NCBI GenBank assembly: GCA_919902985.1
Contig: CAKKSC010000007.1
Span: 16,749 to 80,748 of the forward strand
DNA length: 64,000 nt
Direction of reading: 5' to 3'
Source of the DNA: Desulfuromonadales bacterium
GTDB lineage: Bacteria; Desulfobacterota; JAENJC01
The position numbers and the translations under genes are program-made. Positions 6,155 through 63,850 of the stretch are shown here, piece by piece (the first letter of the stretch is position 1; every line of letters begins with the position of its first letter). The notes under the pieces were generated by a model that did not search any database, was not told where the DNA came from, and was given only the letters and a program-made list of their open reading frames with translations.

Positions 6155-6167
6155 GGCACGATCTTGA

Positions 6168-6252
6168 AAATCCCCCTTAATCCCCCTTTTCCAAAGGGGG
6201 AAAAGTTAGGTCCCCCTCTTTGGCAAAGAGGGGTTAGGGGAGATTTTTGGAG
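6168..6252. repeat. poly-C/poly-G tandem hairpin repeat, copy a
   Basis: CCCCCTTTtccAAAGGGGG followed by CCCCTCTTTggcAAAGAGGGG, then AGGGGAGATTTT. Intergenic between gspF and the exeA-like gene. Confidence 0.7.
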
Positions 6253-10946: not shown

Positions 10947-10984
10947 CTCCCTCTTTGGAAAAGAGGGGGCAGGGGAGATTTTCA
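10947..10984. repeat. poly-C/poly-G hairpin repeat, copy b
   Basis: CTCCCTCTTTggaAAAGAGGGGG followed by CAGGGGAGATTTT. Lies between convergent genes. Confidence 0.65.
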
Positions 10985-13436: not shown

Positions 13437-15434
13437 ATGAAAGAAAACAAGCTTGCAGAAGTAGCTGTCCCGGCCCCTCTTGACAGGACATTCCATTATC
13501 TCCTCCCTGAAACCCTCGCTGACAAAGCCGCAGTGGGGATGAGGGTTACTGTCCCCTTTGGCAGGAGGTCTGTGACAGGGTATATCGTCGGTTTTCCTAA
13601 GGATGAAGAACCTGATGATTCCTTTGAGTTGAAGGAGATCAAGGATTTCCCTGATCCTGAACCTGTTTTCAGCCCGGATATGCTCAAGCTTTACAAGTGG
13701 ATTGCTGACTACTATATTGCACCGTTGGGCGAGGTAATCAGCACGGCACTGCCGCCGATTATGAAGAGGATAAAAAAGCAGGGGGCAGTGGTCAGGGATC
13801 AGGGGTCAGTAAGAGTCGAACTGACGGAAATGCAGAGAGAGGCCTTTTCAACCATCATTGCTGCTATGGATGCGAACGAGTTTGCCCCTTACCTGCTTCA
13901 TGGCGTAACCGGCAGTGGAAAGACGGAAGTGTACCTGAGGGTAATTGAAGAGTCTCTTGCGCGAGGGAAGGGGGCCATTGTCCTTGTCCCTGAGATATCC
14001 CTTACGCCTCAGCTCCTGGGACGTTTCAGGTCTCGATTTGGTGATAAGGTGGCCGCCCTTCACAGTGCCCTGTCTGACGGCGAGAGGTATTCGGAGTGGA
14101 TGCGGATAAAAAGGGGGGAGGCCAGGATTGTTGTCGGGGCCAGGTCTGCAATATTTGCGCCCATGGATGAACTTGGCGTTCTGGTGGTGGATGAGGAACA
14201 CGACCATTCATACAAGCAGGAAGAATCTCCGCGATATAACGCCCGAGACCTTGCCGTTGTCAGGGGAAAGATGGTTAAAGGGGTTGTCGTACTTGGCTCC
14301 GCTACTCCGTCAATGGAGTCTTATCATAATGCAAAGACAGGAAAGTTTAATTACCTGAACCTCCCCCACAGGGTTGAGGAGCGACCTATGCCCCAGATCG
14401 CAGTAGTTGATATGAAGGATACAGGCAAAAGGCGGATTTTTTCCAGTCAAATGACGGAATCCTTGAACAGGTGTATCGGGGAGAAAAAGCAGGCGCTACT
14501 CTTTTTGAACAGGAGGGGATTTTCCACGTTCCTGATGTGTTCCGACTGTGGCTTCACCTTTGGCTGTCCCAATTGCAGCATATCTCTGATATACCACCAG
14601 GGAGAAGGGTTGCTCAGGTGTCATTACTGTGACTATGTACAAAAGGCCTTTCCTGTGTGTCCTGCCTGCAAAGGTGTAAATGTGGGGCATTTGGGCCTTG
14701 GGACCGAAAAGGTTGAGGACGAGATAAAAAAGTCCTTCCCCGATTCCAGGGTTGCCAGGATGGACAGGGATACGGTTTCAAGGAAAGGCTCCCACGAACG
14801 AATCCTCAAGAGGATGGAAGAGGGGGATCTGGACATACTTATAGGGACCCAGATGGTGACAAAGGGACATGACTATCCAAATATTACTATGGTTGGCGTT
14901 ATCTCTGCAGATATATCCTTAAACCTGCCCGATTTTAGAGCGGCTGAAAGGACATTCCAGCTTCTTACTCAGGTGTCGGGCAGGGCTGGAAGAGGAGACG
15001 TCCTTGGGAAGGTGATAATCCAGACATTTAACCCCGATCACTATAGCATTGTTGCTGCCAGGAGCCATGATCTGGATGGTTTTTACAGGGAGGAGACGAC
15101 CTTCAGGAAGGAACTGGGGTATCCTCCTTTTTCCAGACTGATAAGCATAAGGCTCAGGGGGAACAGCGAGGCCAGAACTGCCTTAGCCGCTAATAATCTT
15201 GGCGAGCTTGCCAGGAATGAGATGAAGGCGTGGAAGGGTGTAACCATACTTGGCCCCAGCAAGGCCACTATATATAAGATCCGAGGGAAATACCGCTGGC
15301 ATATCCTGGTCAAAGGAAAAGACAGCGGCAAGCTTCATTCCTTTGTAAGGAAGCTGATTTCTCTGACGAGGGAGGGGTCGGGTTTCAGGGGGGTTGAGCT
15401 ACAGGTGGATGTAGACCCGTTGAACATGCTTTAG
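13437..15434 (+). CDS. priA: primosomal protein N' (replication restart helicase PriA)
   Basis: Walker A GVTGSGKTEVY, DEEHD box, and a Cys-rich zinc-binding region CSDCGFTFGCPNCS...CHYCDY. Confidence 0.9.
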   Translation: MKENKLAEVAVPAPLDRTFHYLLPETLADKAAVGMRVTVPFGRRSVTGYIVGFPKDEEPDDSFELKEIKDFPDPEPVFSPDMLKLYKWIADYYIAPLGEVISTALPPIMKRIKKQGAVVRDQGSVRVELTEMQREAFSTIIAAMDANEFAPYLLHGVTGSGKTEVYLRVIEESLARGKGAIVLVPEISLTPQLLGRFRSRFGDKVAALHSALSDGERYSEWMRIKRGEARIVVGARSAIFAPMDELGVLVVDEEHDHSYKQEESPRYNARDLAVVRGKMVKGVVVLGSATPSMESYHNAKTGKFNYLNLPHRVEERPMPQIAVVDMKDTGKRRIFSSQMTESLNRCIGEKKQALLFLNRRGFSTFLMCSDCGFTFGCPNCSISLIYHQGEGLLRCHYCDYVQKAFPVCPACKGVNVGHLGLGTEKVEDEIKKSFPDSRVARMDRDTVSRKGSHERILKRMEEGDLDILIGTQMVTKGHDYPNITMVGVISADISLNLPDFRAAERTFQLLTQVSGRAGRGDVLGKVIIQTFNPDHYSIVAARSHDLDGFYREETTFRKELGYPPFSRLISIRLRGNSEARTALAANNLGELARNEMKAWKGVTILGPSKATIYKIRGKYRWHILVKGKDSGKLHSFVRKLISLTREGSGFRGVELQVDVDPLNML

Positions 15435-20778: not shown

Positions 20779-21469
20779 GAAAATGGTAAAGGCCGGCAGC
20801 GGATTCACTCCGGGGCGGCCGCGGGGTGGGGCGGCATCGGAGGAGCGAAGCGACGTACGGGTCTCCGATAAGATCAGTAAGATTAGAACATGTCTGGGTT
20901 GCAGGGTCTCTAAGGAAAAGGAAGAGCTTGTAAGGCTCATGAAATCTCCAGACGGGATTGTAGTTATAGACTATAAAAGAACCCTCCCCGGCAGAGGTGC
21001 TTATGTCTGCCCGACAGAGTCATGCATCAGGGATGCATTTTCAAGGAAGCAGATTACAAGGGTGTTTAAAGTTTCACAGATTGAGGGAGTGGATGAGTTC
21101 CTTGACCGCTTAAGGAAGCTGATTCTTTACAGGATTTCATCGCTCCTTTCCCTTGCAAGAAAGGCAGGGAAGGTTGTGGATGGAAGAGAGGCTGTCGAAA
21201 AGGGGATGGAGAAAGGGACTATAAAACTTCTCGTCTTTGCTGAAGACCTTTCTCCCCTGAGTTTGAAGGATATGAAAGATATATGTCTCAAGAGAGGAAT
21301 AATGTATTATACATACATCTCAAAGGACGGTATGGGTGGCCTTATAGGTAAGGGAGAGAGGGGTGCACTCGGCATAGCGGATGAATCTTTCTCATCCTTA
21401 TTGGGAAAGGAATTTGAAAGGTTTAAGAGTCTGGGAAGTATGGGCTCAGGGGGTGGAAAAAATGGCTAA
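20771..21469 (+). CDS. YlxR (DUF448)-L7Ae/YlxQ-like fusion protein
   Basis: N-terminal part carries the CLGCR...YVC zinc-ribbon motif of YlxR. C-terminal part has the L7Ae-like ARKAGKVV...[10 protein letters not shown] motif. One continuous ORF between nusA and infB. Confidence 0.6.
20801..20869 (+). repeat. about 70-nt conserved element, copy A (nusA-ylxR junction, overlaps the annotated ylxR 5' region)
   Basis: GGATTCACTCCGGGGCGGCCGCGGGGTGGGGCGGCATCGGAGGAGCGAAGCGACGTACGGGTCTCCGAT. About 80% identical to copy B. Confidence 0.6.
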
Positions 21470-23840
21470 GATAAGGATTCACGAACTTGCGAAGGAATTG
21501 GGCTTGGAAAACAAGGATGTAATAGCCAAGTGCAAACAGCTTGGATTTGGAGATAAGAGCCCTTCTCACGGCCTTGAAAACAGCGAGGCGGATAGTGTCA
21601 GGAAGGCCTTTAAGCCCCGCGAAGAGGCCTTGCCGGAAGAGATGCAGATTGTTGTAGAGAAAAAGGTCACCCTTGAGGACAGGGAGTTGTCTGTTGAAGA
21701 AAGGCGGGTAAAGTCCACTGTTATCAGGAGGAGGACTAAAGAGATAGAGGTCAAGCCCCAGGTTGTCGAGCCGGTTGAGCCTGTTAAGGTTGAAAAGGTC
21801 CCAGCAGTCCATGAGCTTCCATCCGAGCTGGCGGAGGTTGCCGTTCCTGTGATAGGGCCGCAAATTCCAGAAATGCAGCTGGTGCGTGTCATTGAAGAAG
21901 AGAAGCCTAGGGAAGAGGCCACGGGGAAGAAGAAGGATAAGAAGGAGATACTTAAGAAGGTGGAAAGCTTGGAGCTCAAGGAGCGTGTGTTTAAACCCGT
22001 GCCCGCTTTCAGGGGAAAGAGGCGAGGGGCAAAGGCTGCGCCTGCGGCAGGTTCCAAGAAGACTGAGATAACAGTTCCCAAGGCTATAAAAAGGGTCATT
22101 AAGGTCTCGGACGTGATACAGGTCGGGGAACTGGCCAAGAGGATGGGGATTAAGGCGGGTGAGGTTATAAAGAAGCTGTTCGGGCTTGGTATCATGGCCA
22201 CGATAAACCAATCAGTTGACATAGATGCTGCTACCCTTATCGCCCAGGACTTCGGGTACGAGGTCGAGAGGGTTGGAATGGAGATAGTGGAGGAAATGCT
22301 TGAAGAGACTGCGGATATAGCCGAGAATAAGGTTTTGAGGCCTCCCGTAGTTACAGTTATGGGTCATGTTGACCACGGTAAGACATCACTTCTGGACGCC
22401 ATAAAACAGACCGATGTGGCTGCAGGAGAGGCTGGGGGGATAACGCAGCATATAGGTGCCTATCACGTGAAACTCGATAAGGGAGACCTTGTGTTTCTGG
22501 ATACACCAGGGCATGAGGCGTTCACTGCCATGAGGGCGAGGGGTGCCCAGGTTACCGACTTTGTTGTCCTTGTGGTTGCTGCTGACGATGGGGTAATGCC
22601 CCAGACTGTGGAGGCCATAAACCATGCCAAGGCAGCCAACGTTCCGATCATTGTTGCGGTCAACAAGATAGACAAGCCTGGCGCCAACCCTGATAAGGTT
22701 AAACAGTCTTTATCCGAGCATGGACTTCAACCTGAGGGTTGGGGAGGGGACACCATCTTTGTGAATGTCTCTGCAAAACAGAGGACTGGGATCAAGGAAC
22801 TCCTTGAGATGATAATCCTTCAGGCAGAGGTAATGCAGCTTAAGGCCAACCCTGACAAGTTTGCCAAGGGAACTATAATAGAGGCAAGGCTTGACAAGGG
22901 TAGAGGGCCTGTGGCAACTGTCCTAGTTCAGGAGGGGACCCTTAAGGTAGGAGACCCCTTCGTTGCAGGGGTCCACTACGGAAGGGTCAGGGCCATGCTT
23001 GACGACAAAGGGGCAAAGGTTCTGGAGGCAGGCCCATCAATGCCGGTGGAGGTGCAGGGCCTTCCTGGAGTGCCTCAGGCTGGAGAGAGGTTCGTAGTCG
23101 TCTCTGATGAGAAAAAGGCAAAGGAGATAGGAACATACAGGCAGATGAAGCAGAGGGAGACTGAACTTTCCAAGAGCAGCAAGGTCTCTCTTGAGGACCT
23201 CTACAATAAGATAAAAGATGGAGAGGTAAAAGAACTGGGGATCATCATCAAGGCCGATGTTCATGGTTCCGTAGAAGCATTGACCGAGTCACTCCAGAAG
23301 CTCTCGACCGACGCTATAAAACTGAAGGTGCTTCACGGTTCCGTTGGGGCCATAACAGAGACCGACGTGCTTCTGGCTGCTGCTTCCAACGCCATAATAA
23401 TAGGTTTCCATGTCCGCCCTGATGTCAAGGTGCAGGCGTTGGCAGATGAAGAAGGGGTGGATGTAAGGCTTTACAGCATTATCTATGAGGTCACGGAGGA
23501 TGTGAAGAAGGCCATGGAGGGCCTCCTTGCACCGACCATCAAGGAGGTAGTCCTTGGAAGGGCTGAGATCAGGGAGATATTCAGCGTTCCAAAGATTGGG
23601 AACATCGGCGGCTGCTTTGTGACGGATGGAAAGATAACGAGAGGCTCCATGATAAGGCTTATAAGGGACGGGATAGTGATCCATGACGGCAAGCTGGCCT
23701 CCTTGAGAAGGTTCAAGGACGATGTTAAAGAGGTGCAGTCCGGGTATGAATGCGGTATCGGCATAGAGAACTATAACGACATCAAGACCGGTGATGTGAT
23801 TGAGGCTTATATACACGAAAAGATAGCAGCAAAATTATAG
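21462..23840 (+). CDS. infB: translation initiation factor IF-2
   Basis: GTP-binding domain [25 protein letters not shown]. Start at [13 protein letters not shown] (ATG 21462), after a GGGGGTGGA RBS. Confidence 0.95.
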
Positions 23841-23907
23841 TGGACAGTGGCCGGTGATCGGTGATCAGTTGATGCCGACCACTGACGTCTGACCACTGAC
23901 CACTGAA
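23841..23907. repeat. heptamer-array inverted pair (GTGGNCN x4 / CTGACCA x4) directly after the infB stop
   Basis: (GTGGACA)(GTGGCCG)(GTGATCG)(GTGATCA)...(CCGACCA)(CTGACGT)(CTGACCA)(CTGACCA). The arms are imperfectly complementary. Confidence 0.7.
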
Positions 23908-24655: not shown

Positions 24656-25592
24656 GGAACTACAAAACAACAATACCTTTCTGATTGTATCCCATATTAA
24701 CCCTGATGGAGATGCCATAGGCTCGTCGCTTGCCCTTGCAGCCGGTCTAACGGCCACAGGGAAAAAGGTTACTGTATTCAACAATGACAGTGTCCCTGAT
24801 ATAGTCAGATTTTTACCTGGCTCAAGCGAGATAGTACATGAACTATTAGCTGGCGATCAGTTTGATGCTGCCATTGTTGTGGACTGCGGCACCCCGAAGC
24901 AGCTTGGCGATAAGTTCAATGCCTTCAAGGGTTACAAGAAACTCCTTAATATAGACCACCATGCAACAAACCTCAATTTTGCAGATGTAGTTTTCCTTGA
25001 CCCCGATGCCTGTGCCACAGGGGCGATGATTTACAGGATACTCAAGAGTATGCAGGTTGAGATAACAAGGGCGATCGCCCTGTCTATTTACACAACCATT
25101 GTTGTGGATACCGGCTCCTTCCATTATGGAAACTCAAACCCGGAGGCTTTCAGGATCGCAGGTGAGATGGTGGATATAGGAGTTGAGCCGTGGTTTGTGG
25201 CTGAAAACCTTTATGAGAGCCAGCCTGAAGGAAGGATAAGGCTTCATTCTATGGCGTTAAATACCCTCACCACCCATTATGACGGCAAGATCGGGTTCAT
25301 CATGGTATCAAAAGAGATGTACAAGGCCACTGGGACAACGGCAGAGGACACAGACGGGATTGTGAATTATGCCAGGTCTCTGAGGGGTGTGGAGGTGGCA
25401 ATATTTATTAGAGAGATATCACCTGATAAGTACAAGGCCTCTCTCCGCTCCAAGGGTAGGGTGGATGTTACAAAGATTGCGGGAAGGTATGACGGAGGAG
25501 GTCATGTTAACGCAGCAGGCTGTGTGCTTAAGGGAAGCCTGCCGGAGGTAAAGAAGAATCTGTTAGAGGCAACTGAGGAGATACTGAAATAA
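24636..25592 (+). CDS. DHH/DHHA1 phosphoesterase (NrnA-like oligoribonuclease/pAp phosphatase)
   Basis: DHH motifs SHINPDGDAIGS and NIDHH. DHHA1 GGGH motif near the C-terminus. Confidence 0.8.
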   Translation: MMERIVKELQNNNTFLIVSHINPDGDAIGSSLALAAGLTATGKKVTVFNNDSVPDIVRFLPGSSEIVHELLAGDQFDAAIVVDCGTPKQLGDKFNAFKGYKKLLNIDHHATNLNFADVVFLDPDACATGAMIYRILKSMQVEITRAIALSIYTTIVVDTGSFHYGNSNPEAFRIAGEMVDIGVEPWFVAENLYESQPEGRIRLHSMALNTLTTHYDGKIGFIMVSKEMYKATGTTAEDTDGIVNYARSLRGVEVAIFIREISPDKYKASLRSKGRVDVTKIAGRYDGGGHVNAAGCVLKGSLPEVKKNLLEATEEILK

Positions 25593-25594
25593 AA

Positions 25595-25676
25595 GTGCAA
25601 AATGTAAAATGCAAATGATAAAATTAATACACCTCCATTTTACGCTTTACACTTTGAAATTTGCACTTTGAAATTT
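25595..25676. repeat. AT-rich heptamer-array inverted pair (TGCAAAA-type / CACTTTG-type)
   Basis: (TGCAAAA)(TGTAAAA)(TGCAAAT)...(CATTTTA)(CGCTTTA)(CACTTTG)(AAATTTG)(CACTTTG). Lies between nrnA and truB. Confidence 0.65.
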
Positions 25677-25679
25677 ATT

Positions 25680-26897: not shown

Positions 26898-27026
26898 AGA
26901 CTATTCACGCAAAGACGCAAAGAGCGCAAAGATAAATAGAAATGGACTAAATCCTTTCTTGGCGTACTGGCGCCTTTGCGAGCAGAATATGGTTTTTGAG
27001 TTGAATAATAATATAAGGTCCGCAAA

Positions 27027-27096
27027 GGATTCAATCCGGGCTGACCGCGGGGTACGGGGACATCGGAGGAGAAGAGCGACGCACGTGTCCCCGATC
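27027..27096 (+). repeat. about 70-nt conserved element, copy B (rpsO-pnp leader)
   Basis: GGATTCAATCCGGGCTGACCGCGGGGTACGGGGACATCGGAGGAGAAGAGCGACGCACGTGTCCCCGAT. Contains an 8-bp stem CGGGGACA/TGTCCCCG. Confidence 0.6.
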
Positions 27097-29313: not shown

Positions 29314-29386
29314 TATCCCATCCCCACCTCAATCCTCCCCTTGAAGGCGAGGAAGTCTCCCTCTCCTTCAGGGAGAGGGTGGGTTC
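29314..29386. repeat. poly-C/poly-G tandem hairpin repeat, copy c (nearly identical to copy e)
   Basis: TATCCCATCCCCACCTCAATCCTCCCCTTGAAGGCGAGGAA...CTCCCTCTCCTTCAGGGAGAGGGTGGG. Upstream of the M16 peptidase gene. Confidence 0.7.
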
Positions 29387-29401
29387 AATTAAAGGAGCTT
29401 A

Positions 29402-37310: not shown

Positions 37311-37372
37311 TAAAATGCAAAATGCAAAATTAAAAACTAAAATTTGCAATTTACAATTTGCATTTGATCAAC
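37311..37372. repeat. AT-rich heptamer-array inverted pair that encodes the PilW leader
   Basis: (ATGCAAA)(ATGCAAA)(ATTAAAA)(ACTAAAA)(TTTGCAA)(TTTACAA)(TTTGCAT). Translated as MQNAKLKTKICNLQFAFDQ. Confidence 0.6.
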
Positions 37373-38364
37373 GCGGGTTTACCCTCGTTGAGCTCCTTGT
37401 TGCAATGGCCATAGCCTCAGTTATTGGAATGGCCGGGGTCTCCCTGTTCTCAACCAGCAACTGGGCTTATAAGGTTAATGAGGACGTGGCTGAGGCCCAG
37501 CAGAACGGCAGGGTGTCGTTGGATAGGCTCGCCAAAGACATAAGGACAGCCGGGTTCGGTCTACCTGACCCGCCGTTTACCCTCTCCATTGGGGGGCAGA
37601 ACTGGACTTCTCCGATTACCGTTACGACCAGCGGTGGATCAGGGGGCCCGGACAGCATAACTATCCTCGGGATAGGGTATGAGGCTGGGACGCTGGAGAA
37701 CGACGCTGACAATAATGGTACCGAGGATGATAATACCTGCAACGGTGGCGCCGATAGCAAGATATGTCTCGATAGCGTAGATCCCAGCACTAATAGCTTC
37801 TTTAGCAGCGATTTGACTACCTTCAAGACTTCAAGGATGTATATAAGCCTCAATGGATCAACATTTATAGAACTCTCTAATACCCAAACGGAGAGGGCGG
37901 CTGGGAAACTTGCTTTAGGAACCCCTTCTACCCTCGACAGGCTCTACCCCGACGGCACCCCAGTCTATATCATCCAGGCTGTTACATATTCCATAGAAAC
38001 TACCGGTGTGGGATGTTCATCTTCAAATCCATGCCTTAAAAGCAATGACCTCACAGAACTACGTGGCAGCGGTACTCAGACCATTGCCGAGAACATAGAG
38101 GACATCCAGTTTGCTTATGGTGTGGACGCAGACCGGGATGGAAATATGGATTCGAGTACTTTATCTAATGATCCGGCAGATGATTCCAGTATACTGGCTG
38201 TGAGGGCATGGGTGGTTGCGATGACGAGGAACAGGGATATGAAGGGCTCGACTTTTACAAGGCCTGTTATTGAAGACCATTCTGCCAGCGCATCCGACAA
38301 CTACAGGCGAAGGATCCTTACTAAGATCATAAAGCTGAGGAATCCAAGGACCGGAGGGTCGTAA
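37315..38364 (+). CDS. pilW: type IV pilus minor pilin PilW
   Basis: RGFTLVELLVAMAIASVIGMAG preceded by a 20-aa leader. Start ATG 37315. Confidence 0.65.
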   Translation: MQNAKLKTKICNLQFAFDQRGFTLVELLVAMAIASVIGMAGVSLFSTSNWAYKVNEDVAEAQQNGRVSLDRLAKDIRTAGFGLPDPPFTLSIGGQNWTSPITVTTSGGSGGPDSITILGIGYEAGTLENDADNNGTEDDNTCNGGADSKICLDSVDPSTNSFFSSDLTTFKTSRMYISLNGSTFIELSNTQTERAAGKLALGTPSTLDRLYPDGTPVYIIQAVTYSIETTGVGCSSSNPCLKSNDLTELRGSGTQTIAENIEDIQFAYGVDADRDGNMDSSTLSNDPADDSSILAVRAWVVAMTRNRDMKGSTFTRPVIEDHSASASDNYRRRILTKIIKLRNPRTGGS

Positions 38365-38365
38365 T

Positions 38366-38456
38366 GTATCCCATCCCCACCTTAATCCTCCCCTTGAAGG
38401 GGAGGAAATAAGCATTCTCCCTCTCCCTCAGGGAGAGGGTTGGGGTGAGGGTGGAT
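38366..38456. repeat. poly-C/poly-G tandem hairpin repeat, copy e
   Basis: The first 40 nt match copy c with 2 mismatches. Two hairpins. Lies between pilW and pilX. Confidence 0.7.
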
Positions 38457-45542: not shown

Positions 45543-45797
45543 ATGAAGCAGAATATAAACAACGTTAGGAAGTTGAGAGAGGCCAAGCTGATGAGCAAGG
45601 CCGAATTGGCAAGAAAGGCCGGGATATCAGTCCTGACAGTGGACAGAATAGAGAAGGGTCACCCATGCAGGCTGGACACGAAAAGGAAGGTGGTCATTGC
45701 CCTGGGTCTCAGGGTTCCTGAGGCGGACAAGGTTTTTAAGAGCAGCCAGAAATCAGAAGACAGGGGTCAGGGGTCAAGGGTCAGGGGTCAGAAGTAA
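45543..45797 (+). CDS. XRE-family helix-turn-helix transcriptional regulator
   Basis: HTH LMSKAELARKAGISVLTVDRIEKG. The C-terminal tail GQGSRVRGQK is encoded by a GGGGTCA heptamer array. Confidence 0.6.
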   Translation: MKQNINNVRKLREAKLMSKAELARKAGISVLTVDRIEKGHPCRLDTKRKVVIALGLRVPEADKVFKSSQKSEDRGQGSRVRGQK

Positions 45798-45855
45798 CCG
45801 TGAGGTTAATATCATTAGCTTTTACCTCTCACGTCTTACGTTTCACGTCTCACGG
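45761..45855. repeat. composite heptamer arrays: (CAGGGGT)x5 in the XRE C-terminus, then a CCGTGAGG / CTCACG inverted pair
   Basis: CAGGGGTCAGGGGTCAAGGGTCAGGGGTCAGAAGT...CCGTGAGG...CCTCTCACGTCTTACGTTTCACGTCTCACGG. Upstream of pilM. Confidence 0.7.
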
Positions 45856-48124: not shown

Positions 48125-48195
48125 TAGTGGTCAGTTGTCAGTGGTCAGTGGTCAGATTTGTCTAATGCTTATCTCTTACTGCTTATTGCTTACTG
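48125..48195. repeat. heptamer arrays (AGTGGTC x4, then CTTACTG x4) spanning the pilO-pilP junction
   Basis: The second array encodes the PilP signal peptide. The arrays are complementary in RNA only if G-U pairs are allowed. Confidence 0.6.
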
Positions 48196-48668: not shown

Positions 48669-51640
48669 GAATCGATGCTATAGTAAATAAAACCAACATG
48701 TTATCGCTCTTGAGTCTGATTATCTTATTGTCGGCCTGTTCGCCAAAAGTCGCGCAGGTAAGGCCGGAAGAACAGGCAAAAGCCATATCCATTAGCAGTC
48801 TGGAGATTGGAAAGAGTGATGACAGGTCTATCCTGACTATTAAGGCAACTGAATCATTGCAGGGAAATTACACGGTCATTAAGGTGTCAGAACCGCCCAA
48901 GGTGTTTATAGAGATGCCAACTGCGGATGTGGGAAATTTCGAAGGCACGATAGATGCTGTTAATGGAGTCATCTCAAAGGTAGTGACCTCAAGGCGTGAT
49001 GTTTCCGGCGCCATGATAGAGATTAGCCTTTTGTCCTTAGTAGAGCATGAGGTCAAGGCAGATGGAAATACGCTGGAGATATATTTGGGAGCGCCTCATG
49101 GAGAAGGAGCCCCATCTGAGAAAGTAGAAGAAGCCCCTATAGAAGAGAAAGCGGAGGCCGGCTCTACAACAGATAGTAAGGAGCAGTCACCCGCCGAAAT
49201 AGTTGTGGAGCCAAAGACAGAAGAAAAGGCTGAAGCTCCCCAGAAGGCCTTAAAAGTGAAGGCAGTTGAGATTAAAAAGGAGGGAAAATTTACAAGGGCA
49301 GAAATAATTACTGACGGCGAAGTTTCGGATTATAATGTCTTTGACTTAAAGTCCCCTAACAGGGTTGTTGTTGATGTCAGGAATGCCAGGGAGATATTGA
49401 CAAAAAGGGATATTAAGGCTGTCTCGCCTCACATCAATGGCGCCAGGCTTGGGCGGCATGACGGGCAGGTGAGGGTCGTATTTGACTATAAGGGAGGTGT
49501 CAAGCCTTATGAGGTAGTTAAGGAGAGTGACAGGATCTCCATTATATTTGGAAAGAAGCCAACAACTGTAGTGGCAAAAGTCGAGAAGGCAGCCGTAAAG
49601 GAAGAAGCCCCGAAGATAGAGGAAAAGGTAGAGGTAGAGAAAAAGTCAGAGACGACTACAGTAGAACCGGAGCCTGCTGCCACTGCTGAGGCCCCAAAAA
49701 AGGCTTTAAAAATAACAGATGTGAAGATTCAGAAGTCAGGCAAGTTCACAAGTGCAGAGATAATAACAGATGGAGACCCGTCCACATACAAGGTCTATGA
49801 CCTTAAGTCGCCGGACAGGGTTATCGTTGACATCATGAATGCAAGGGACATTTCTGCAAAAAAGAAGATCAAGGCAGTTTCCCCTCATATCAAGGGCGCA
49901 AGACTCGGGCGTCATGACGGACAGGTGAGGGTTGTATTTGACTATAAGGGGAGCATTGAGCCTTATTTTGTATTAAAAGGGGCTGACAGGATCACGATAT
50001 TGTTTGGAAAGAAGCCAGAAACTACTGAAGCAAAAGTCGAGAAAGCAGCAAAGGAAGAGGCACCGAAAATAGAAGAAAAGGCAGAGGAGGCGCCTGCTGC
50101 AGTCGAGGCAACGCCTGAGGTTAAGGAAGAGGTAAAGACAGAGACCAAGGCGGAGATCCAGAAAGAAGAGTCAAAGGTAGAAGAGGCTGCAAGCGCCAAG
50201 CCTGTTGAGGTTCCTGCCGAAGTAAAACACGCGGTAGAAAAGGAAGAGATAAAGACAGAGGAAAAAACCGAAGCAAAAGAGAAGGCTGTCGCCGCTCCTT
50301 CAGTCGAAGCGGCGGTCGAGGAGAAGACCGAGCCGGAACCAGAAAAGAAAACTGCTGCCGAGAGTGCATCTGAGGAGATGGCAAAGGTTTATAATGGACA
50401 GAAGGTCACCCTGGAGTTCAAGGATGCTGACATAAAAAATATATTCAGGATTATTGCAGAGGTAAGCGGCTACAATATGATAATTGACAGCGCGGTGGTC
50501 GGAAAGGTCACCATCAGGCTTGTAAACGTCCCATGGGACCAGGCACTTGATATATTGCTGGAGACAAATAACCTGGGGATGAAAAAGGTGGGAAATGTAA
50601 TCAGGGTGCTGCCAGCCGCAATAGTGAAAAAGGAGGAAGAGGAGAAGCTGGCTTCAAAGAAGGCTATGGAAAAGCTTGAAGATATGGTGACTAAAGTCAT
50701 ACCTGTCAGCTATGCAACGGCATCCGATATCTCTTCCAAGTTGAAGGGCGTTATGACGGACAGGGGCACTGCCATTGTTGATGATAGGACAAATACCATA
50801 ATCCTGAAGGATATACAGAAAAGTGTTGATGAAGCGGAAAAGCTTGTGATGGGTTTGGACGAACCGACAAAGCAGATTATTATAGAGGCCAGGATTGTGA
50901 CGGCAAACACAAACTTCGCGAGAGACCTCGGAGTTCAATGGGGCGCTGGCTATGCGGCTGATGCCGCACATGGAAACCCGACAGGTTATTACTTTCCGAA
51001 TTCATACAATGTATCCGGTGGGGGAGGCGGTTCCTTCGCCCTCAATCCACCAGCATCAGGTGGCGTCGGCGCATCCTCGGGCGGGGGAGGTGTTGTGGGT
51101 ATCAATTTCGGGTCGATTAATAATACCTTGAACTTGGACCTTCGGTTGAGCGCGCTTGAGAGTCAGGGTTGGGGAAAGGTTGTCTCCAGCCCGAAGATAA
51201 TAACCCTTGACAATAAGCTGGCATCTATCTCGCAGGGAATTTCCATACCATTTGAGACCACATCTGCTTCAGGCACACAAACGACTTTCGTGGATGCAAA
51301 CCTCAATCTGACTGTAACGCCGCACGTGACTAACGATGACAGGATAAGTATGAAGATAAAGGTCAGCAAGAACAGGCCGGATCTTGCCTTTAAAGGGGCC
51401 AGCGGAGCACCGTCGATTGATAAGAAGGAAGCAACTACGGAGATACTTGTTAAGGATGGAGATACTACCGTTATAGGCGGTATCTATGAGATTGATAAGG
51501 GTGAGAGCGAAACATTTACGCCATTCCTTGGCAGGATACCTATCCTCGGATGGTTATTTAAATCCAAGAAAAAAACTGAAACAAAGACAGAACTACTAAT
51601 ATTTATAACCCCCAAAATAGCACGCGATATAGCAGGATAA
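48665..51640 (+). CDS. pilQ: type IV pilus secretin PilQ (two AMIN domains)
   Basis: Two highly similar AMIN domains. Low-complexity E/K-rich linkers. Secretin C-terminus IGGIYEIDKGESETFTPFLGRIPILGWLFKSKKK...ELLIFITPKI. Confidence 0.9.
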   Translation: MRIDAIVNKTNMLSLLSLIILLSACSPKVAQVRPEEQAKAISISSLEIGKSDDRSILTIKATESLQGNYTVIKVSEPPKVFIEMPTADVGNFEGTIDAVNGVISKVVTSRRDVSGAMIEISLLSLVEHEVKADGNTLEIYLGAPHGEGAPSEKVEEAPIEEKAEAGSTTDSKEQSPAEIVVEPKTEEKAEAPQKALKVKAVEIKKEGKFTRAEIITDGEVSDYNVFDLKSPNRVVVDVRNAREILTKRDIKAVSPHINGARLGRHDGQVRVVFDYKGGVKPYEVVKESDRISIIFGKKPTTVVAKVEKAAVKEEAPKIEEKVEVEKKSETTTVEPEPAATAEAPKKALKITDVKIQKSGKFTSAEIITDGDPSTYKVYDLKSPDRVIVDIMNARDISAKKKIKAVSPHIKGARLGRHDGQVRVVFDYKGSIEPYFVLKGADRITILFGKKPETTEAKVEKAAKEEAPKIEEKAEEAPAAVEATPEVKEEVKTETKAEIQKEESKVEEAASAKPVEVPAEVKHAVEKEEIKTEEKTEAKEKAVAAPSVEAAVEEKTEPEPEKKTAAESASEEMAKVYNGQKVTLEFKDADIKNIFRIIAEVSGYNMIIDSAVVGKVTIRLVNVPWDQALDILLETNNLGMKKVGNVIRVLPAAIVKKEEEEKLASKKAMEKLEDMVTKVIPVSYATASDISSKLKGVMTDRGTAIVDDRTNTIILKDIQKSVDEAEKLVMGLDEPTKQIIIEARIVTANTNFARDLGVQWGAGYAADAAHGNPTGYYFPNSYNVSGGGGGSFALNPPASGGVGASSGGGGVVGINFGSINNTLNLDLRLSALESQGWGKVVSSPKIITLDNKLASISQGISIPFETTSASGTQTTFVDANLNLTVTPHVTNDDRISMKIKVSKNRPDLAFKGASGAPSIDKKEATTEILVKDGDTTVIGGIYEIDKGESETFTPFLGRIPILGWLFKSKKKTETKTELLIFITPKIARDIAG

Positions 51641-51694: not shown

Positions 51695-52960
51695 ATGAGC
51701 ACTCTGAGATATCTGACTGCTGGCGAGTCGCACGGTAAAGGACTATCAGCTTTAATGGAGGGTATTCCGGCTAACCTTGAATTAACAGCTGAGTATATTA
51801 ACAATGAACTTGCCCGCCGACAGATGGGTTATGGACGCGGTGGAAGGATGAAGATCGAGACCGATACCGCGGAGATACTTTCAGGTATAAGGTTTGGCAG
51901 GACACTTGGCTCACCTATAGCCCTGTTCATTGAAAACAGAGATTGGGAAAACTGGCAGGAAGTGATGAGTTCACCCCCCCCTCAATCCCCCCCTTTAATA
52001 AAAGGGGGGGTAGAGGGAGTTGTCACCCGCCCCCGCCCAGGCCATGCAGACCTTTCTGGCGCAATCAAGTACAACCAAAAGGACATCAGGAACATATTAG
52101 AGAGGTCGAGTGCGCGGGAGACGGCTGCAAGGGTAGCAGTAGGTTCTGTTGCAAAAAAACTTCTTGAGGAGTTCGGCATAAGGGTTTTCAGCTGGGTTAC
52201 AGAGATAGGAGGACAGCAGTGGTCAGAGGTCAGTGGTCGGAGCTCAGTCTATTACTCGCCGCTCCTCGCTTCTCGCTCCTCGCTTTCTGAGTTATACGAG
52301 AAGGCTGAAAAATCCGAGGTTAGATGTCCAGATGCGGCAGCAACAGAGGCCATTAAGAAAAGGATAGACGAGGCCAGAAACAGCGGAGATTCTCTCGGCG
52401 GAATATTTGAGATTGTCGTAAGCGGCGCTCCGGTTGGCCTTGGGAGTCACGTCCAGTTTGACAGGAAGCTGAATGCGAGGCTTTCCATGGCCCTTATGAG
52501 CATACAGGCTATCAAAGGGGTAGAGTTTGGACTTGGATTTGAGGCGGCGACACGGCACGGCTCTGAGGTGCATGATGAGATATGCTTCAGGGGTCAGGGG
52601 TCAGGGGTCAAGGGTCAGGAATTCAAACCACCGACCACTGGGTTTTACAGGAAGACCAACAATGCGGGTGGCATAGAGGGCGGGATGTCGAATGGTGAGG
52701 ATATAGTCATCAGGGCGGCAATGAAACCGATACCTACTCTGTATAAACCGCTTCGCTCAGTGGACATAGTAACAAAAGAGGTCTTTGAGGCCACTGTCGA
52801 GAGGTCGGATATATGTGCCGTCCCAGCCGCTTCAGTTGTGGGCGAAGCCGTTGTAGCTTTCGAGATCGCCAATGCCGTGCTTGATAAATTCGCCGGCGAC
52901 TCGATGGAAGAGATGATGAAGAATTACAACAGCTATATGGAATATGTGAAGGGGTTTTAG
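51695..52960 (+). CDS. aroC: chorismate synthase (carrying three in-frame repeat insertions)
   Basis: Motifs [33 protein letters not shown]. 421 aa versus about 360-390 for typical AroC. Confidence 0.9.
51972..52036. repeat. poly-C/poly-G hairpin repeat, copy g, in frame inside aroC
   Basis: CCCCCCCCTCAATCCCCCCCTTTaataAAAGGGGGGGTAGAGGGAG. Translated as [19 protein letters not shown] immediately before the conserved RPGHAD motif. Confidence 0.7.
52216..52288. repeat. heptamer arrays (CAGTGGT x3, then TCCTCGC x4) in frame inside aroC
   Basis: Translated as [26 protein letters not shown]. There is about 20 aa extra here relative to canonical AroC. Confidence 0.6.
52588..52619. repeat. (GGGGTCA)x4 array in frame inside aroC
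   Basis: CAGGGGTCAGGGGTCAGGGGTCAAGGGTCAGG translated as GQGSGVKGQ. The same unit occurs at 45761. Confidence 0.65.
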
Positions 52961-52983
52961 AATAAGAGATTAACAAACCCTAG

Positions 52984-53100
52984 TAACTCCCCTCCCTTGG
53001 CGGGAGGGGATTGAGAGGAGGGGGATCGAATTTGGTGACGTTTCACCCTCACCCTGACCCTCTACCCATCCGGGCATAAATCCCGTCAAGGGAGAGGGAA
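52984..53100. repeat. poly-C/poly-G tandem hairpin repeat, copy f
   Basis: CCCCTCCCttggcgGGAGGGGA...GAGGAGGGGG...CCCTCACCCTGACCCTCTACCCATCCGGGCATAAATCCCGTCAAGGGAGAGGG. Between aroC and aroK. Confidence 0.65.
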
Positions 53101-53106
53101 AATTAT

Positions 53107-58130: not shown

Positions 58131-59177
58131 ATGACGGCAGAAATTAAAGATGATGCACCTATTCCGCCTGAGATAAACAAATACCTGGCAATTCTCAGTA
58201 AAGATCCCGGCTCGATGGTGTTCGCGCCACTGGCGGAGGCCTACAGGAAGGCTGGGATGCTGGATGAGGCGATTGCAACTGCCAGGGACGGCTTGAAGCT
58301 CCGTCCTGACTATGTGAGCGGAATGGTTGCCCTCGGGAGGGCATATTTTGAAAAGGGTTTATTGGCCGAGGCCAGAGAAAACCTGGAGAAGGTGCTTATA
58401 ATTGCGCCGGACAACATCATTGCAGCCGGGATATTAGAGGAGATAAAAAGCAAGTGGTCAGTGGTCAGGGGCCAGGGGCCAGAAAAGCCGGAACCTGTTA
58501 CCCCTGACCTTGAACCTGACAAGGCAGTCAGTCAGGAGTCAGAAGTCGGCAGTCAGAAGATAGATGAGCCGGAGATTGAAGAACTCACTGAACTGGAAGA
58601 GTTTATAGAGTTAGAAGAGGTAGATGCAGAAGAAAAGTCGGGAGATTTTCAGGTTGAGGAGATAAGCTTTGAGGCCCCGGAACCTGGATTGGGGCTTGCA
58701 AAAGAGGTAAAAGAGACAGAGGAAGAGAAAACTGCGGAAGATATAGGCATATGGGGGGAAGAAGCTGCAAGCGAGTTGGAAGCGGAACCGGCGATATCCG
58801 AGGTCATTGAACCTGAAGCACAGTTAAGAAGCCCGGAGGTTGAGGAGAAAGAGGCAAGGTCAAGGAAGGAAATAACCACAGAGACCATTGCCGACCTATA
58901 TATAAAGCAGGGCTATTTTGACAAGGCTATTGACATATACCAGACCCTGTATGATGCTGACCCTGGAAATGATGATATAAAGAGGAAACTTGATGAACTG
59001 AAAAAGCAGTTGTCAGGGGTCAGTGATCAGGGGGCAGAGGTAAAGAGACCAGAGGAAGAGTTAGTGGTAAGGTGGGCTGAGTCGACCGGACAAGGAGCGG
59101 AACTCAAAACTGATGAGAATATAGACAGGCTGGGATCATGGCTTAAGACAATTCAGAGCGAGAGGCGGAAGGGCTGA
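58131..59177 (+). CDS. TPR-repeat protein with acidic linker
   Basis: TPR repeats at the N-terminus and C-terminus. The E/P-rich middle region is partly encoded by heptamer arrays. Confidence 0.55.
   Translation: MTAEIKDDAPIPPEINKYLAILSKDPGSMVFAPLAEAYRKAGMLDEAIATARDGLKLRPDYVSGMVALGRAYFEKGLLAEARENLEKVLIIAPDNIIAAGILEEIKSKWSVVRGQGPEKPEPVTPDLEPDKAVSQESEVGSQKIDEPEIEELTELEEFIELEEVDAEEKSGDFQVEEISFEAPEPGLGLAKEVKETEEEKTAEDIGIWGEEAASELEAEPAISEVIEPEAQLRSPEVEEKEARSRKEITTETIADLYIKQGYFDKAIDIYQTLYDADPGNDDIKRKLDELKKQLSGVSDQGAEVKRPEEELVVRWAESTGQGAELKTDENIDRLGSWLKTIQSERRKG
58454..58558. repeat. heptamer arrays (AGTGGTC x2, AGGGGCC x2; inverted CCCCTGACC; AGTCAGN x5) in frame inside the TPR gene
   Basis: Translated as WSVVRGQGPEKPEPVTPDLEPDKAVSQESEVGSQK. 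Confidence 0.6.
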
Positions 59178-60713: not shown

Positions 60714-61277
60714 GTGATGTATTCAACAGCGGAATTCAAAAATGGATTAAAGATTGAGTTAGATGGAGAACCTTTTACCATAGTGGAGTTCCAGCATGTA
60801 AAGCCAGGGAAGGGTGGGGCTTTTGTGCGGACGAAACTGAAGGCTTTAAAGAGCGGAAAGGTCATAGAAAGGACATTCCGCTCCGGTGAGAAGGTGGACA
60901 AGCCTGATGTAGAGGAAAAGAAGATGCAGTTCCTTTATGAGGCAGCCGGCAGCTACCATTTCATGGATGTTGAGAGCTACGAGCAGTTTCAATTTTCCGG
61001 GGATCAGATAGGGAATGGGGTAGGCTTCCTCAAGGAGGAGACGGTGGTGACTGTACTTTTCCATAACCAGAAGGCCATAGGTGTCGATCTGCCGAACTTT
61101 GTTGAGATCGAAATAGCAGAAACAGATCCTGGATTGCGTGGTGATACAGTCTCCAGCAGTGGAAAACCTGCTAAATTAAAGACCGGAGCAATTGTTCAGG
61201 TACCGCTCTTTGTAAATATCGGGGATGTTATAAAGGTGGATACAAGGACAGGTGATTATATAGAAAGGGTTAAATAA
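60714..61277 (+). CDS. efp: elongation factor P
   Basis: STAEFKNGLKIELDGEPFTIVEFQHVKPGKGGAFVRTKLK. Confidence 0.95.
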   Translation: MMYSTAEFKNGLKIELDGEPFTIVEFQHVKPGKGGAFVRTKLKALKSGKVIERTFRSGEKVDKPDVEEKKMQFLYEAAGSYHFMDVESYEQFQFSGDQIGNGVGFLKEETVVTVLFHNQKAIGVDLPNFVEIEIAETDPGLRGDTVSSSGKPAKLKTGAIVQVPLFVNIGDVIKVDTRTGDYIERVK

Positions 61278-61278
61278 T

Positions 61279-61327
61279 GTAGAAACAGGCCTTTAGGCCT
61301 GTTAACATGGCTGAAGCCTGTTTCTAC
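61279..61327. repeat. 50-nt palindromic module GTAGAAACAGG...CCTGTTTCTAC (copy 1, efp-accB spacer)
   Basis: Outer 11-bp stem. The inner arm AACAGGCC can alternatively pair with GGCCTGTT. A second copy lies at 61850..61899. Confidence 0.6.
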
Positions 61328-61347
61328 GTTTAAAACCGGAGGTAGAT

Positions 61348-61809
61348 ATGGACTTAAAAGATATAAAGCAGATAATAAAGGTCTTGGAAGGTACCGATGT
61401 TACTGAGATAGAGGTTGAACAGGAAGGGGTCAAGGTAAGGGTTAAGAGGGGGGGGAACTACCCTGTTATTCCTTTGAGCCAGGTTCAAATGCTACCTCGC
61501 GAAGTTGAGGTACAGTCCGCTTCCTCTTCTGCAAAGGCCGAAAAACCGGTAGAAAAAGAGTCTCCAAAGCTGAAGACCATCGGTTCCCCTATGGTTGGAA
61601 CATTTTATCTCACACCTGCCCCGGACGCTCCGCCATTTGTTGAGGTGGGTGGCGTTGTTACCAAAGGGCAGACCCTTTGCATAATAGAGGCGATGAAGCT
61701 TATGAATGAGATAGAGGCGGAGTGTTCAGGCAGGATAGCATCAATACTTGTAGAAAATGCGAAGCCGGTGGAATATGGCGAACCGCTTTTTATGATAGAG
61801 CCGGCATAA
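61348..61809 (+). CDS. accB: acetyl-CoA carboxylase biotin carboxyl carrier protein
   Basis: Biotinyl-lysine motif [15 protein letters not shown]. Confidence 0.9.
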
Positions 61810-61922
61810 GAGACGTAAATCGTAAACCATGAGCCGTGAGCTGTGTGTCGTAGAAACATGGCTTTAGCCATGTCAACAGGCCTGAAGACCTGTTTCTACA
61901 AGGATTTAAGATTTACGTTTTT
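61810..61922. repeat. composite structured element: complementary outer heptamer arms enclosing a 50-nt palindromic module
   Basis: Left arm GAGACGTAAATCGTAAACC. Right arm GGATTTAAGATTTACGTTTTT. Inner module GTAGAAACA...TGTTTCTAC with nested hairpins. Confidence 0.6.
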
Positions 61923-63761: not shown

Positions 63762-63767
63762 ACTATA

Positions 63768-63850
63768 TTGCAAACTGTAAATTGCAAAATTAAGATGTGG
63801 ATTAGAAAGCTTTTTGTACTTTTCACTTTGCATTTTGCAATTTGAAATCT
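63768..63850. repeat. AT-rich heptamer-array inverted pair after gcvH
   Basis: (TTGCAAA)(CTGTAAA)(TTGCAAA)ATT...(CACTTTG)(CATTTTG)(CAATTTG)AAATC. Confidence 0.6.

Follow-up and report, generated by a model that had tools for sequence, protein, structure and literature searches.

Three loops of chorismate synthase are built from small dispersed repeats in a free-living groundwater Desulfuromonadales lineage

The question raised by this locus is how three segments of an essential enzyme came to be encoded by short repeats of the kind that lie mostly between genes. The locus is aroC, the chorismate synthase gene in a 64,000-nt stretch of DNA (hereafter the window) from an uncultured Desulfuromonadales bacterium (GenBank assembly GCA_919902985.1, contig CAKKSC010000007.1, positions 16,749 to 80,748 of the forward strand). 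The original prediction, made from the sequence alone, held that the 421-residue AroC carries three extra in-frame segments, each derived from an intergenic repeat family. Our analysis showed that the three loops are indeed built from repeats, that some of these are homologous to intergenic copies, and that length variation among relatives is confined to the loops, with the reading frame kept. We consider it probable that these repeats are selfish or neutral, that selection retains only copies that keep the frame, lack stops and lie in a permissive place, and that they are translated and tolerated, with turnover by three-unit slippage, nested insertion and replacement. What is new is the case of an essential enzyme in a free-living lineage in which repeats make up three defined loops, with frame-preserving 21-nt steps and multi-allelic cassette turnover, together with a possible link to four-helix-bundle cassettes.

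The aroC gene is intact (Table 1). A Pfam scan matched its product to PF01264 (Chorismate_synt) over positions 1-327 of 327 (E=2.8e-125), and the closest solved AroC was that of Aquifex aeolicus (1q1l, 401 aa, E=9e-148). The catalytic RPGHAD motif and the NNAGGIEGG flavin-loop motif are both present; in an alignment with 37 relatives, RPGHAD, the flavin-loop positions G325, G326, E328, G329 and G330, and numerous further positions were invariant. Three segments of the gene are encoded by repeats, all in frame and with zero stop codons. The open reading frame (ORF), the Pfam match and the output of Tandem Repeats Finder (TRF) agreed with the predicted protein and its repeat-encoded segments. 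A protein identical to the window AroC occurs in a metagenome-assembled genome (MAG) labelled Deltaproteobacteria bacterium, and the coding sequence (CDS) was matched at every base in three independent assemblies of different samples (European Nucleotide Archive, ENA, and Logan). Because the CDS is identical in these assemblies, the repeat segments are not the assembly artefact that had been named as a possible objection to them. Outside the loops, the 353 codons showed zero insertions or deletions against seven relatives, at an amino acid identity of 84-95%, and all gap columns (46-72) in the DNA alignment with these relatives fell within the three loops. Synonymous-only and nonsynonymous differences outside the loops stood at ratios from 73:19 (relative L161) to 131:57 (relative L163); this part of aroC is under purifying selection.

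The first of the segments, site 1, comprises residues 92-110 of AroC, with the hairpin element itself translated as residues 94-108, and adjoins the catalytic histidine of RPGHAD. As predicted, it is encoded by a poly-C/poly-G hairpin repeat, and it is the only aroC site with a significant hairpin fold (-28.9 kcal/mol for the RNA, z=-3.2). Its motif, CCYCAATCCYCCCCTT, had five matches in the window against 0.52 expected, the intergenic positions 29327 and 38380 among them, and its layout of C-run, TYAAT, C-run, TTT-loop-AAA and G-run is common to 6165-6200, 29327 and 38380. Site 2 consists, again as predicted, of two heptamer arrays, which TRF reported with period 7: array A, of the CAGTGGT type, at 52217-52248 (4.4 copies), and array B, of the CGCTCCT type (CTCGCTY in our feature list), at 52260-52284 (3.6 copies). 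Array A aligns in register with seven other modules of the form (CAGKGGT)x4+CAG. Site 3 is made up of the GGGGTCA array at 52587-52619, a spacer of 7 nt and a partly complementary arm, ACCACCGACCACTG, at 52627-52640. The array had been recognized correctly in the original prediction, whereas the peptide is longer than it had proposed and stops seven residues ahead of NNAGGIEGG instead of adjoining it.

All three segments had been described as extra relative to canonical AroC, a description that clearly fits only one of them. Compared with the Aquifex enzyme, site 1 is longer by 6 aa, site 2 by 6 aa and site 3 by 12 aa; the site-1 loop of Bifidobacterium AroC is nearly as long as that of the window, and site 3 is missing from the AroC of Aquifex, of S. 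pneumoniae and of L163. Because they extend only 6 aa beyond Aquifex, sites 1 and 2 are better described as rewritten and expanded native loops than as pure insertions: by sequence comparison, they appear to be pre-existing variable loops of the long-form AroC, whose coding sequence was overwritten and modestly expanded. On the same alignments, site 3 appears to be the only clear net insertion among the three.

The placement of the loops was further examined in an AlphaFold2 model of AroC. The mean predicted local distance difference test score (pLDDT) was 72, falling to <50 over residues 93-119 and again over 300-315; coil was assigned to residues 181-194. The ordered core of the model matched solved AroC structures with template-modelling (TM) scores of 0.88-0.90, normalised to 1q1l, and only ~335/401 residues are modelled in the 1q1l chains. 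The model, together with the unmodelled 1q1l residues, is consistent with the three repeat-bearing loops being flexible, and the segments, which had been expected to map to surface loops, fall in low-pLDDT or coil regions of the model. A literature search on AroC loop disorder found nothing usable.

Further evidence came from relatives. Species-representative genomes gave three close relatives, and closer DNA was obtained through a metagenome scan and exact-protein look-ups. The protein comparison covered the 37 aligned AroC relatives, taken from a set of 60-90% identity that spans 395-463 aa; the DNA comparison covered 13 relatives with AroC identities of 61-89%. Internal length differences among the 37 proteins all fell within the same three loops, which are filled by a small set of unrelated cassette peptides (PPxSPPLxKGG; ESRVQSSEGSELKTQNSKLL; SPPAPLPLGEGGQRPGEG; KISPDPSLLKRGKSxPPLEKGDKGG; DTSLAPHGERARVRGG; GQWPVVSGQ...LTTDHRQ). 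The natural alleles, whose backbone is 93-95% identical, offer some 5-8 unrelated cassettes for each loop. At the DNA level, each loop is made of recognizable repeats in all 13 relatives except the shortest, L163 (395 aa), which has no period-7 array and only degenerate heptamer traces. The repeats are heptamer arrays of many units, C-run/G-run hairpins, the palindrome GGGTGGGCAGTGCCCACC and CCCTC...GAGGG hairpins, and every allele in the 13 relatives reads through the three loops in frame. In the closest relatives the loop flanks are 86-88% nucleotide-identical, yet the loops are exchanged wholesale. The outcome named in advance as contrary to colonization by repeats, namely the same segments in close relatives with unrelated nucleotide sequence, was thus not what was seen; the relatives carry different segments at the same loops.

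Three kinds of change were visible among these alleles. At site 3, L087 is shorter than the window by exactly 21 nt, that is, by three GGGGTCA units, and L162 is longer by 21 nt in the second arm. At site 2, L082 has 39 extra nt with the palindrome CCCTTAAGGG nested in a GGGGTCA array, an insertion that L087 lacks. Replacement by an unrelated element is the third kind, besides slippage and nested insertion. Length differences always came in multiples of 3, such as 21 nt and 39 nt, and frame-shifting variation by a single unit was not seen among the alleles.

Direct homology between a loop and an intergenic copy was observed for the G/C-rich palindromic element at 6165-6250, which belongs to the same family as site 1 and is a full-length homologue of the site-3 cassette of two relatives. 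This cassette of L161 and L001 (~80 nt, AAAATCTCCCC...GGGGGATTTT) is the reverse complement of the window element; a blastn search with the latter matched, over 81 nt, L161 aroC at 88.9% (E=5e-18) and L001 aroC at 86.4% (E=3e-13). The terminal inverted repeats AAAATCCCCC...GGGGAGATTTT are present both at 6165-6250 and in the L161 and L001 cassette, and a half copy of the element lies at 10949-10982. ATTTTA flanks the L161 cassette on both sides, but it overlaps the element's own ends and was unseen at the intergenic copy of the window.

The families seem to extend beyond close relatives. L167, from a Nitrospirae-labelled MAG with an AroC 61% identical to that of the window, has a C/G hairpin element of the same type at the site-1 loop and heptamer arrays at sites 2 and 3. 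The element in the aroC-aroK spacer also has matches in L167, of 23-36 nt at 89-96%, at 786-808, 2907-2941 and 4285-4320, two of them in spacers between called genes. From these sequence matches, the repeat families seem to be common to distant lineages of similar habitats.

We then asked how unusual such repeats are in the window. A strict detector found four arrays of period 7 and one of period 12, with 0 at the other periods from 4 to 11 and ~0 in shuffles; TRF gave 17 period-7 rows among its 47 in the window. The motif GGTCAGKGGTCAG, with one mismatch allowed, had 19 matches at eight loci, against 0.11 expected in the window. Eight G-rich arrays, those of aroC sites 2 and 3 included, align in register as (CAGKGGT)x4+CAG; an A-rich 5' flank (AAAAAGCA) is common to four or five of the eight, in unrelated genes. 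When clade loci were added to the window, 67 period-7 arrays were obtained, with a median of 4.3 copies, and 52 of the 67 round to 4 or 5. Their density in the clade loci was 0.73 per kb, ten-fold that in 902 kb of other phyla (0.07 per kb). Rfam, searched with its gathering threshold and with E<=1, returned no match to any of the elements.

The position of the arrays relative to genes was also informative. Read on the sense strand, all intragenic arrays lack stops, and inversion would bring stops into most of them; this accounts for the G-rich strand being the sense one. About 8 of the 19 element loci overlap coding sequence, and because the window, judged by eye, is mostly coding, the elements look depleted from genes, with the in-gene copies sitting in permissive places. 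Purely intergenic array pairs fold significantly (z -2.1 to -4.4), and pairs overlapping coding sequence do not. A hairpin model for all arrays was rejected as universal, as aroC sites 2 and 3 and the other CDS-overlapping arrays fold insignificantly. The claim that each aroC segment derives from an intergenic repeat family is supported by related copies in the window, except for array B of site 2, which is unique there.

We propose the following scheme. Two classes of small dispersed repeat would be abundant in the lineage, mostly in intergenic spacers. One class would comprise ~31-nt modules of four to five tandem heptamers, usually paired, with a G/T-rich arm, a spacer of 7-35 nt and a second arm that is often complementary. 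Copies would also land in, or get copied into, coding DNA, and those surviving would have a stop-free sense strand, a total length that is a multiple of three and a structurally permissive place. AroC would offer three such places, all of them flexible loops and all occupied. The inserts would be translated as part of the enzyme and tolerated rather than required, and they would turn over quickly by 21-nt slippage, nesting of small palindromes and wholesale replacement of elements. If so, a single essential enzyme with three loops that accept arbitrary repeat-encoded peptides would let one follow, in an experiment run by nature, the making and remaking of stretches of protein by selfish DNA. 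The available set of natural alleles makes it possible to test the neutrality of insertion, the loop tolerance of a (beta-alpha-beta)-sandwich enzyme and the mechanism by which repeats are placed and replaced. Such loops will also confuse alignment-based orthology, phylogeny and assembly in MAGs of this kind.

Several observations weigh against this scheme. The 67 arrays comprise 41 distinct heptamer units, which is hard to square with simple copying from a few master elements and leaves room for generation in situ. A second copy of the pyrimidine-rich array B of site 2 was searched for in the window and none was found, and the folds of sites 2 and 3 are no better than shuffled (z=+0.7 and z=-0.4). 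A Pfam scan of a subset of the window ORFs revealed no transposase, and no mobility gene was identified. The clade has no truly empty site, as even L163 keeps degenerate heptamers, and for this reason insertion events are deduced rather than observed. Relatives L081-L085 have near-identical aroC backbones with differing combinations of site-1, site-2 and site-3 alleles, mosaics that could be due to strain recombination or to chimeric metagenome assembly. Finally, both the translation of the inserts and the activity of the enzyme are predictions from sequence.

With regard to the first of these points, the heptamer arrays might have been made in situ by a lineage-specific process that amplifies any local heptamer to about 4-5 units, either by slippage with a length optimum or by selection for structure, in which case their likeness would be convergence. 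Such a process would account for the diversity of units at so tight a copy number; slippage steps of 21 nt are directly seen, and four is the favoured number of units in Geobacter metallireducens (PMC2700814) and among G-rich heptamers in Xanthomonas and Nostoc (PMC4692102) as well. It fits less well with the eight G-rich arrays in register and with the A-rich flank common to four or five of them in unrelated genes. Moreover, the G/C palindromic cassette has plainly been copied, and whole cassettes have been exchanged between genes otherwise 87-88% identical. We regard in situ generation as plausible for the heptamer class, not exclusive of the spread of selfish or neutral repeats, and on the whole possible rather than probable. 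That loop peptides are replaced wholesale between close relatives, with the remaining protein 93-95% identical, and that little of sites 2 and 3 is left in the relatives of 395-396 aa, also make it improbable that the inserts are functional, i.e., kept by selection because they tune AroC or because an mRNA hairpin or G-quadruplex slows translation. This possibility draws on the position of site 1 directly ahead of RPGHAD and the end of site 3 seven residues before the flavin loop, on the strong site-1 hairpin that recurs in the 61%-identical AroC, and on the fact that all relatives examined, except the 395-396-aa forms, keep something at the three loops. In addition, the isolated (CAGGGGT)x4 array at 45755 was predicted to form a G-quadruplex (-11.2 vs -3.7 kcal/mol). 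Site 3 likewise has four G3-4 tracts, but within the aroC context the minimum-energy fold is a hairpin, not a quadruplex; with many units AT-rich and so unable to form quadruplexes, G-quadruplex formation was rejected as a general explanation. No consensus terminator or promoter site coincides with the repeat elements inside aroC, and a terminator or promoter role was rejected on that ground.

Two further readings can be set aside with greater assurance. A unit length that is not a multiple of three, in arrays whose length varies between strains, recalls contingency loci, in which the frameshift caused by adding or dropping a single 7-nt unit would turn aroC and other genes off and on. The differences are, however, only of 21 nt, 39 nt and other multiples of three, 13/13 DNA relatives are in frame, the CDS is identical in three independent samples, and four to five units are short for high-rate slippage, so that this reading is highly improbable. 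Equally, the AroC of Aquifex, Streptococcus and Bifidobacterium have loops at sites 1 and 2, as expected of ancestral low-complexity loops of an AroC subfamily, and the sequences come from MAGs, as a metagenome assembly artefact would require. Both ideas are contradicted, the former by the nucleotide sequence common to loops and intergenic repeats and by loops that are wholly different between close relatives, the latter by the same CDS in ENA and Logan assemblies of different samples, and we consider them extremely improbable. The spread of selfish or neutral repeats into permissive loops therefore remains our preferred explanation.

The best-known parallel is that of the Rickettsia palindromic elements (RPEs), reportedly described by Ogata et al. 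in 2000. The elements of the window resemble RPEs in outcome, being both intergenic and in frame inside unrelated genes. They are unlike RPEs in that they are 30-85 nt long and are heptamer-periodic or G/C hairpins, in that their host is a free-living groundwater bacterium, and in that they are swapped for unrelated elements between close relatives. RPEs are small dispersed repeats found between and inside many unrelated genes, essential ones included; they are always in frame, at fold-compatible positions, and are translated as extra peptide segments (PMC10969869). They measure ~100-150 bp, form few families with conserved sequence and occupy the same insertion site across species (PMC10969869). 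By this description, the size and heptamer periodicity of our elements set them apart from RPE families. The elements are probably not homologous to RPEs, and the predicted analogy, in-frame colonization of an essential gene, holds as one of outcome, not of family, with different repeats at the same loops in the relatives. In-frame colonization by repeats, best known from the obligate intracellular Rickettsia, is thereby extended to a free-living groundwater lineage and to heptamer arrays.

The cyanobacterial short tandemly repeated repetitive (STRR) sequences are period-7 kin of the heptamer arrays. To our knowledge, no account of where heptamer-array repeats come from has been given since cyanobacterial examples were described. 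Small dispersed repeats (SDRs) nested in Nostoc heptamer arrays are said to have been reported by Elhai et al. in 2008; like these, the L082 allele holds a small palindrome, GTACCCTTAAGGGCAT, inside (GGGGTCA)n at site 2, absent from L087, but in another phylum, with other sequences, and nested inside a coding region with the frame kept (39 nt). Four-unit heptanucleotide arrays occur inside and between genes of Geobacter metallireducens (PMC2700814), and Xanthomonas and Nostoc have G-rich GGGNATC/GGGGAYT heptamers with four preferred units and quadruplex potential (PMC4692102). The arrays studied here share with all of these, STRRs included, the period of 7 and about four units, as well as G-rich units with quadruplex potential. 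They differ in their many units, AT-rich ones among them, and in their paired, often inverted arms; the in-frame occupation of defined enzyme loops, the three-unit length steps and the allele turnover seen here also distinguish them from known four-unit heptamers. In-frame fusions are created by MITEs (miniature transposable elements with inverted repeats), repetitive extragenic palindromic (REP) sequences, enterobacterial repetitive intergenic consensus (ERIC) sequences, and BOX and Correia elements as well (PMC10969869, PMC3184786). The 6165-6250 element is MITE-like in its inverted ends, strong hairpin potential, multiple copies and in-frame presence in relatives' aroC. It is unlike MITEs in that it is shorter than most, a target-site duplication was not established, and no partner transposase was found in the subset of window ORFs scanned.

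A lead on the origin of the arrays was provided by L087, which has, between aroC and aroK (4293-4661), a 122-aa gene of the four-helix-bundle family PF05635/TIGR02436 that is absent from the window (52961-53106). This gene is flanked by inverted GTGTCAG/CACTGAC arrays, and a tblastn search over ~1 Mb (167 loci and the window) found it to be the sole four-helix-bundle gene match. Separately, 45 extra nt of a CACTGAC/CACCGAC array lie at or just after the aroK stop of L087 (5245-5315) compared with the window. Members of this family are known from intervening sequences of 23S rRNA, whose ORFs they form, and are distantly related to Avd of diversity-generating retroelements (PMC10053308); the family has also been linked to adaptation modules of CRISPR systems (PMC10910872). 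Homologues are numerous, mostly on very short contigs. Eight contexts were tested, namely L087, pilY1|pilin, cas1|cas2 (twice), MOSC|MoCF, FAD-oxidase|Fe-S and two ABC-transporter pairs. In 7/8 contexts the gene is wedged between co-oriented operon genes, cas1|cas2 included, and its upstream flank is significantly inverted-complementary to the downstream one (z 3.8-17.2); most of these contexts show periods of 6, 7 or 13. The upstream arm of L183 contains the CAGTGGT heptamer of the window, and L182 has a different unit with complementary arms. As in 23S rRNA intervening sequences, the four-helix-bundle ORF lies between inverted flanks (7/8), as if in the loop of a long stem; unlike them, the cassettes lie between protein-coding genes and not in rRNA. 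A literature search found no paper linking the PF05635 family to periodic repeats.

On the strength of arm sequence and architecture, we put forward the hypothesis that the short aroC arrays may derive from such four-helix-bundle cassettes. In its wider form, which we offer as a tentative and rather unlikely proposal, the heptamer- and hexamer-periodic hairpins would be the ORF-less form of undescribed small mobile cassettes, the full form of which would carry an Avd-like PF05635/TIGR02436 gene between inverted periodic arms; the cassettes would insert between operon genes, and short derivatives would spread further, enzyme loops included, with the frame kept there. Should this hold, the enigmatic and widespread PF05635 family would acquire a function and a setting for mobility, and the proposal would explain the origin of bacterial four-unit heptamer repeats, the cyanobacterial STRRs included.

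The repeat-bearing features of the window are listed in Table 1.

Table 1. Coordinates of aroC, its three repeat-built sites and the further repeat elements of the window.
Feature	Coordinates	Strand	Evidence or remark
aroC (chorismate synthase), intact	51695..52960	+	ORF of 421 aa; PF01264; PDB 1q1l
aroC site 1: C-run / TCAAT / C-run / TTT-loop-AAA / G-run hairpin element	51974..52019	+	encoded by CCCCCCCCTCAATCCCCCCCTTTAATAAAAGGGGGGGTAGAGGGAG
aroC site 2: two heptamer arrays, with a core between them encoding SSVYYS	52214..52291	+	aa 174-199; TRF
aroC site 3: (GGGGTCA)x4.7 array + 7-nt spacer + short arm ACCACCGACCACTG	52587..52640	+	aa 298-315; TRF
aroC-aroK spacer element: CCCCTCCCTTGGCGGGAGGGG hairpin + TCACCC period-6 array	52985..53100	+	TRF; matches in L167
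Intergenic G/C-rich palindromic element, inverted ends AAAATCCCCC...GGGGAGATTTT	6165..6250	+	fold -45.1 kcal/mol, z=-3.9
G-rich heptamer array in PriA linker, N-terminal DNA-binding domain/helicase	13780..13809	+	in frame; aa 115-125
Inverted pair of heptamer arrays AGTGGNC...GACCACT, intergenic, downstream of infB	23839..23906	+	fold -31.7 kcal/mol, z=-4.4
Inverted AT-rich heptamer arrays between DHH-family gene and truB	25590..25677	+	TRF; fold z=-2.1
Intergenic composite hairpin element with site-1 motif CCTCAATCCTCCCCTT	29314..29395	+	fold z=-3.3
Inverted AT-rich heptamer arrays, probable leader peptide of PilW-like minor pilin	37312..37366	+	TRF, ORF scan
Second copy of the 29314 element	38367..38443	+	95% over 41 nt
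(CAGGGGT)x4.4 = C-terminal tail of helix-turn-helix protein (to 45791), then intergenic (TCTCACG)x4	45761..45854	+	TRF
(AGTGGTC)x4.3 between pilO and pilP, then (TGCTTAC)x4.3	48126..48195	+	TRF
Three in-frame arrays in linker of tetratricopeptide repeat (TPR) protein	58453..58559	+	TRF
Fourth in-frame G-rich array, same TPR protein	59008..59037	+	motif and register alignment
Inverted AT-rich heptamer arrays, intergenic, downstream of gcvH	63765..63844	+	TRF

Among the arrays in other genes, the one preceding pilP deserves mention. The PilP lipoprotein probably starts at the ATG at 48165, with its signal peptide, MLISYCLLLTVVTGC, encoded by the (TGCTTAC)x4 array (48166-48195); if this start is correct, the repeat would supply a functional targeting sequence. 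The leader of the PilW-like pilin (37312-37390) is apparently unusually long, at ~21 aa (MQNAKLKTKICNLQFAFDQRG|FTLVE), and its start codon would fall inside the array.

Some minor observations concern aroC alleles and other repeats. The aroC gene of L084 (P0017) has a frameshift-like C-terminal extension at its 3' end, to 463 aa; an indel from sequencing or assembly, close to the gene end, is its probable cause, and it is unrelated to the arrays. A search for other protein families with a cassette in frame, made with the cassette's translation repeated twice to attain the minimum of 40 aa, gave five weak matches to tiny hypothetical ORFs; it was uninformative, as known carrier AroCs were missed as well. 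An 81-nt GC-rich direct repeat occurs at 20789-20869 and 27015-27095 (78% identical) in spacers of the nusA-infB-rbfA-truB-rpsO-pnp region, after nusA (z=-0.3) and between rpsO and pnp (z=-2.6). It has no Rfam match and may be an unclassified leader or processing element. A palindromic family, AATGTAGAAACAGGC...GCCTGTTTCTAC, lies at 61276-61330 and 61850-61899, on both sides of a biotin/lipoyl-domain ORF (61348-61809). In PilQ, an internal 300-nt duplication (49229-49528 / 49685-49984, 72% identity; the region 50090-50260 is also listed) was observed, and the E/K/A/P-rich linkers carry large in-frame indels (24-129 nt) compared with close relatives. Relatives have a PilQ of 840 to 1083 aa, and contigs that share an identical aroC encode forms of 973 to 991 aa.

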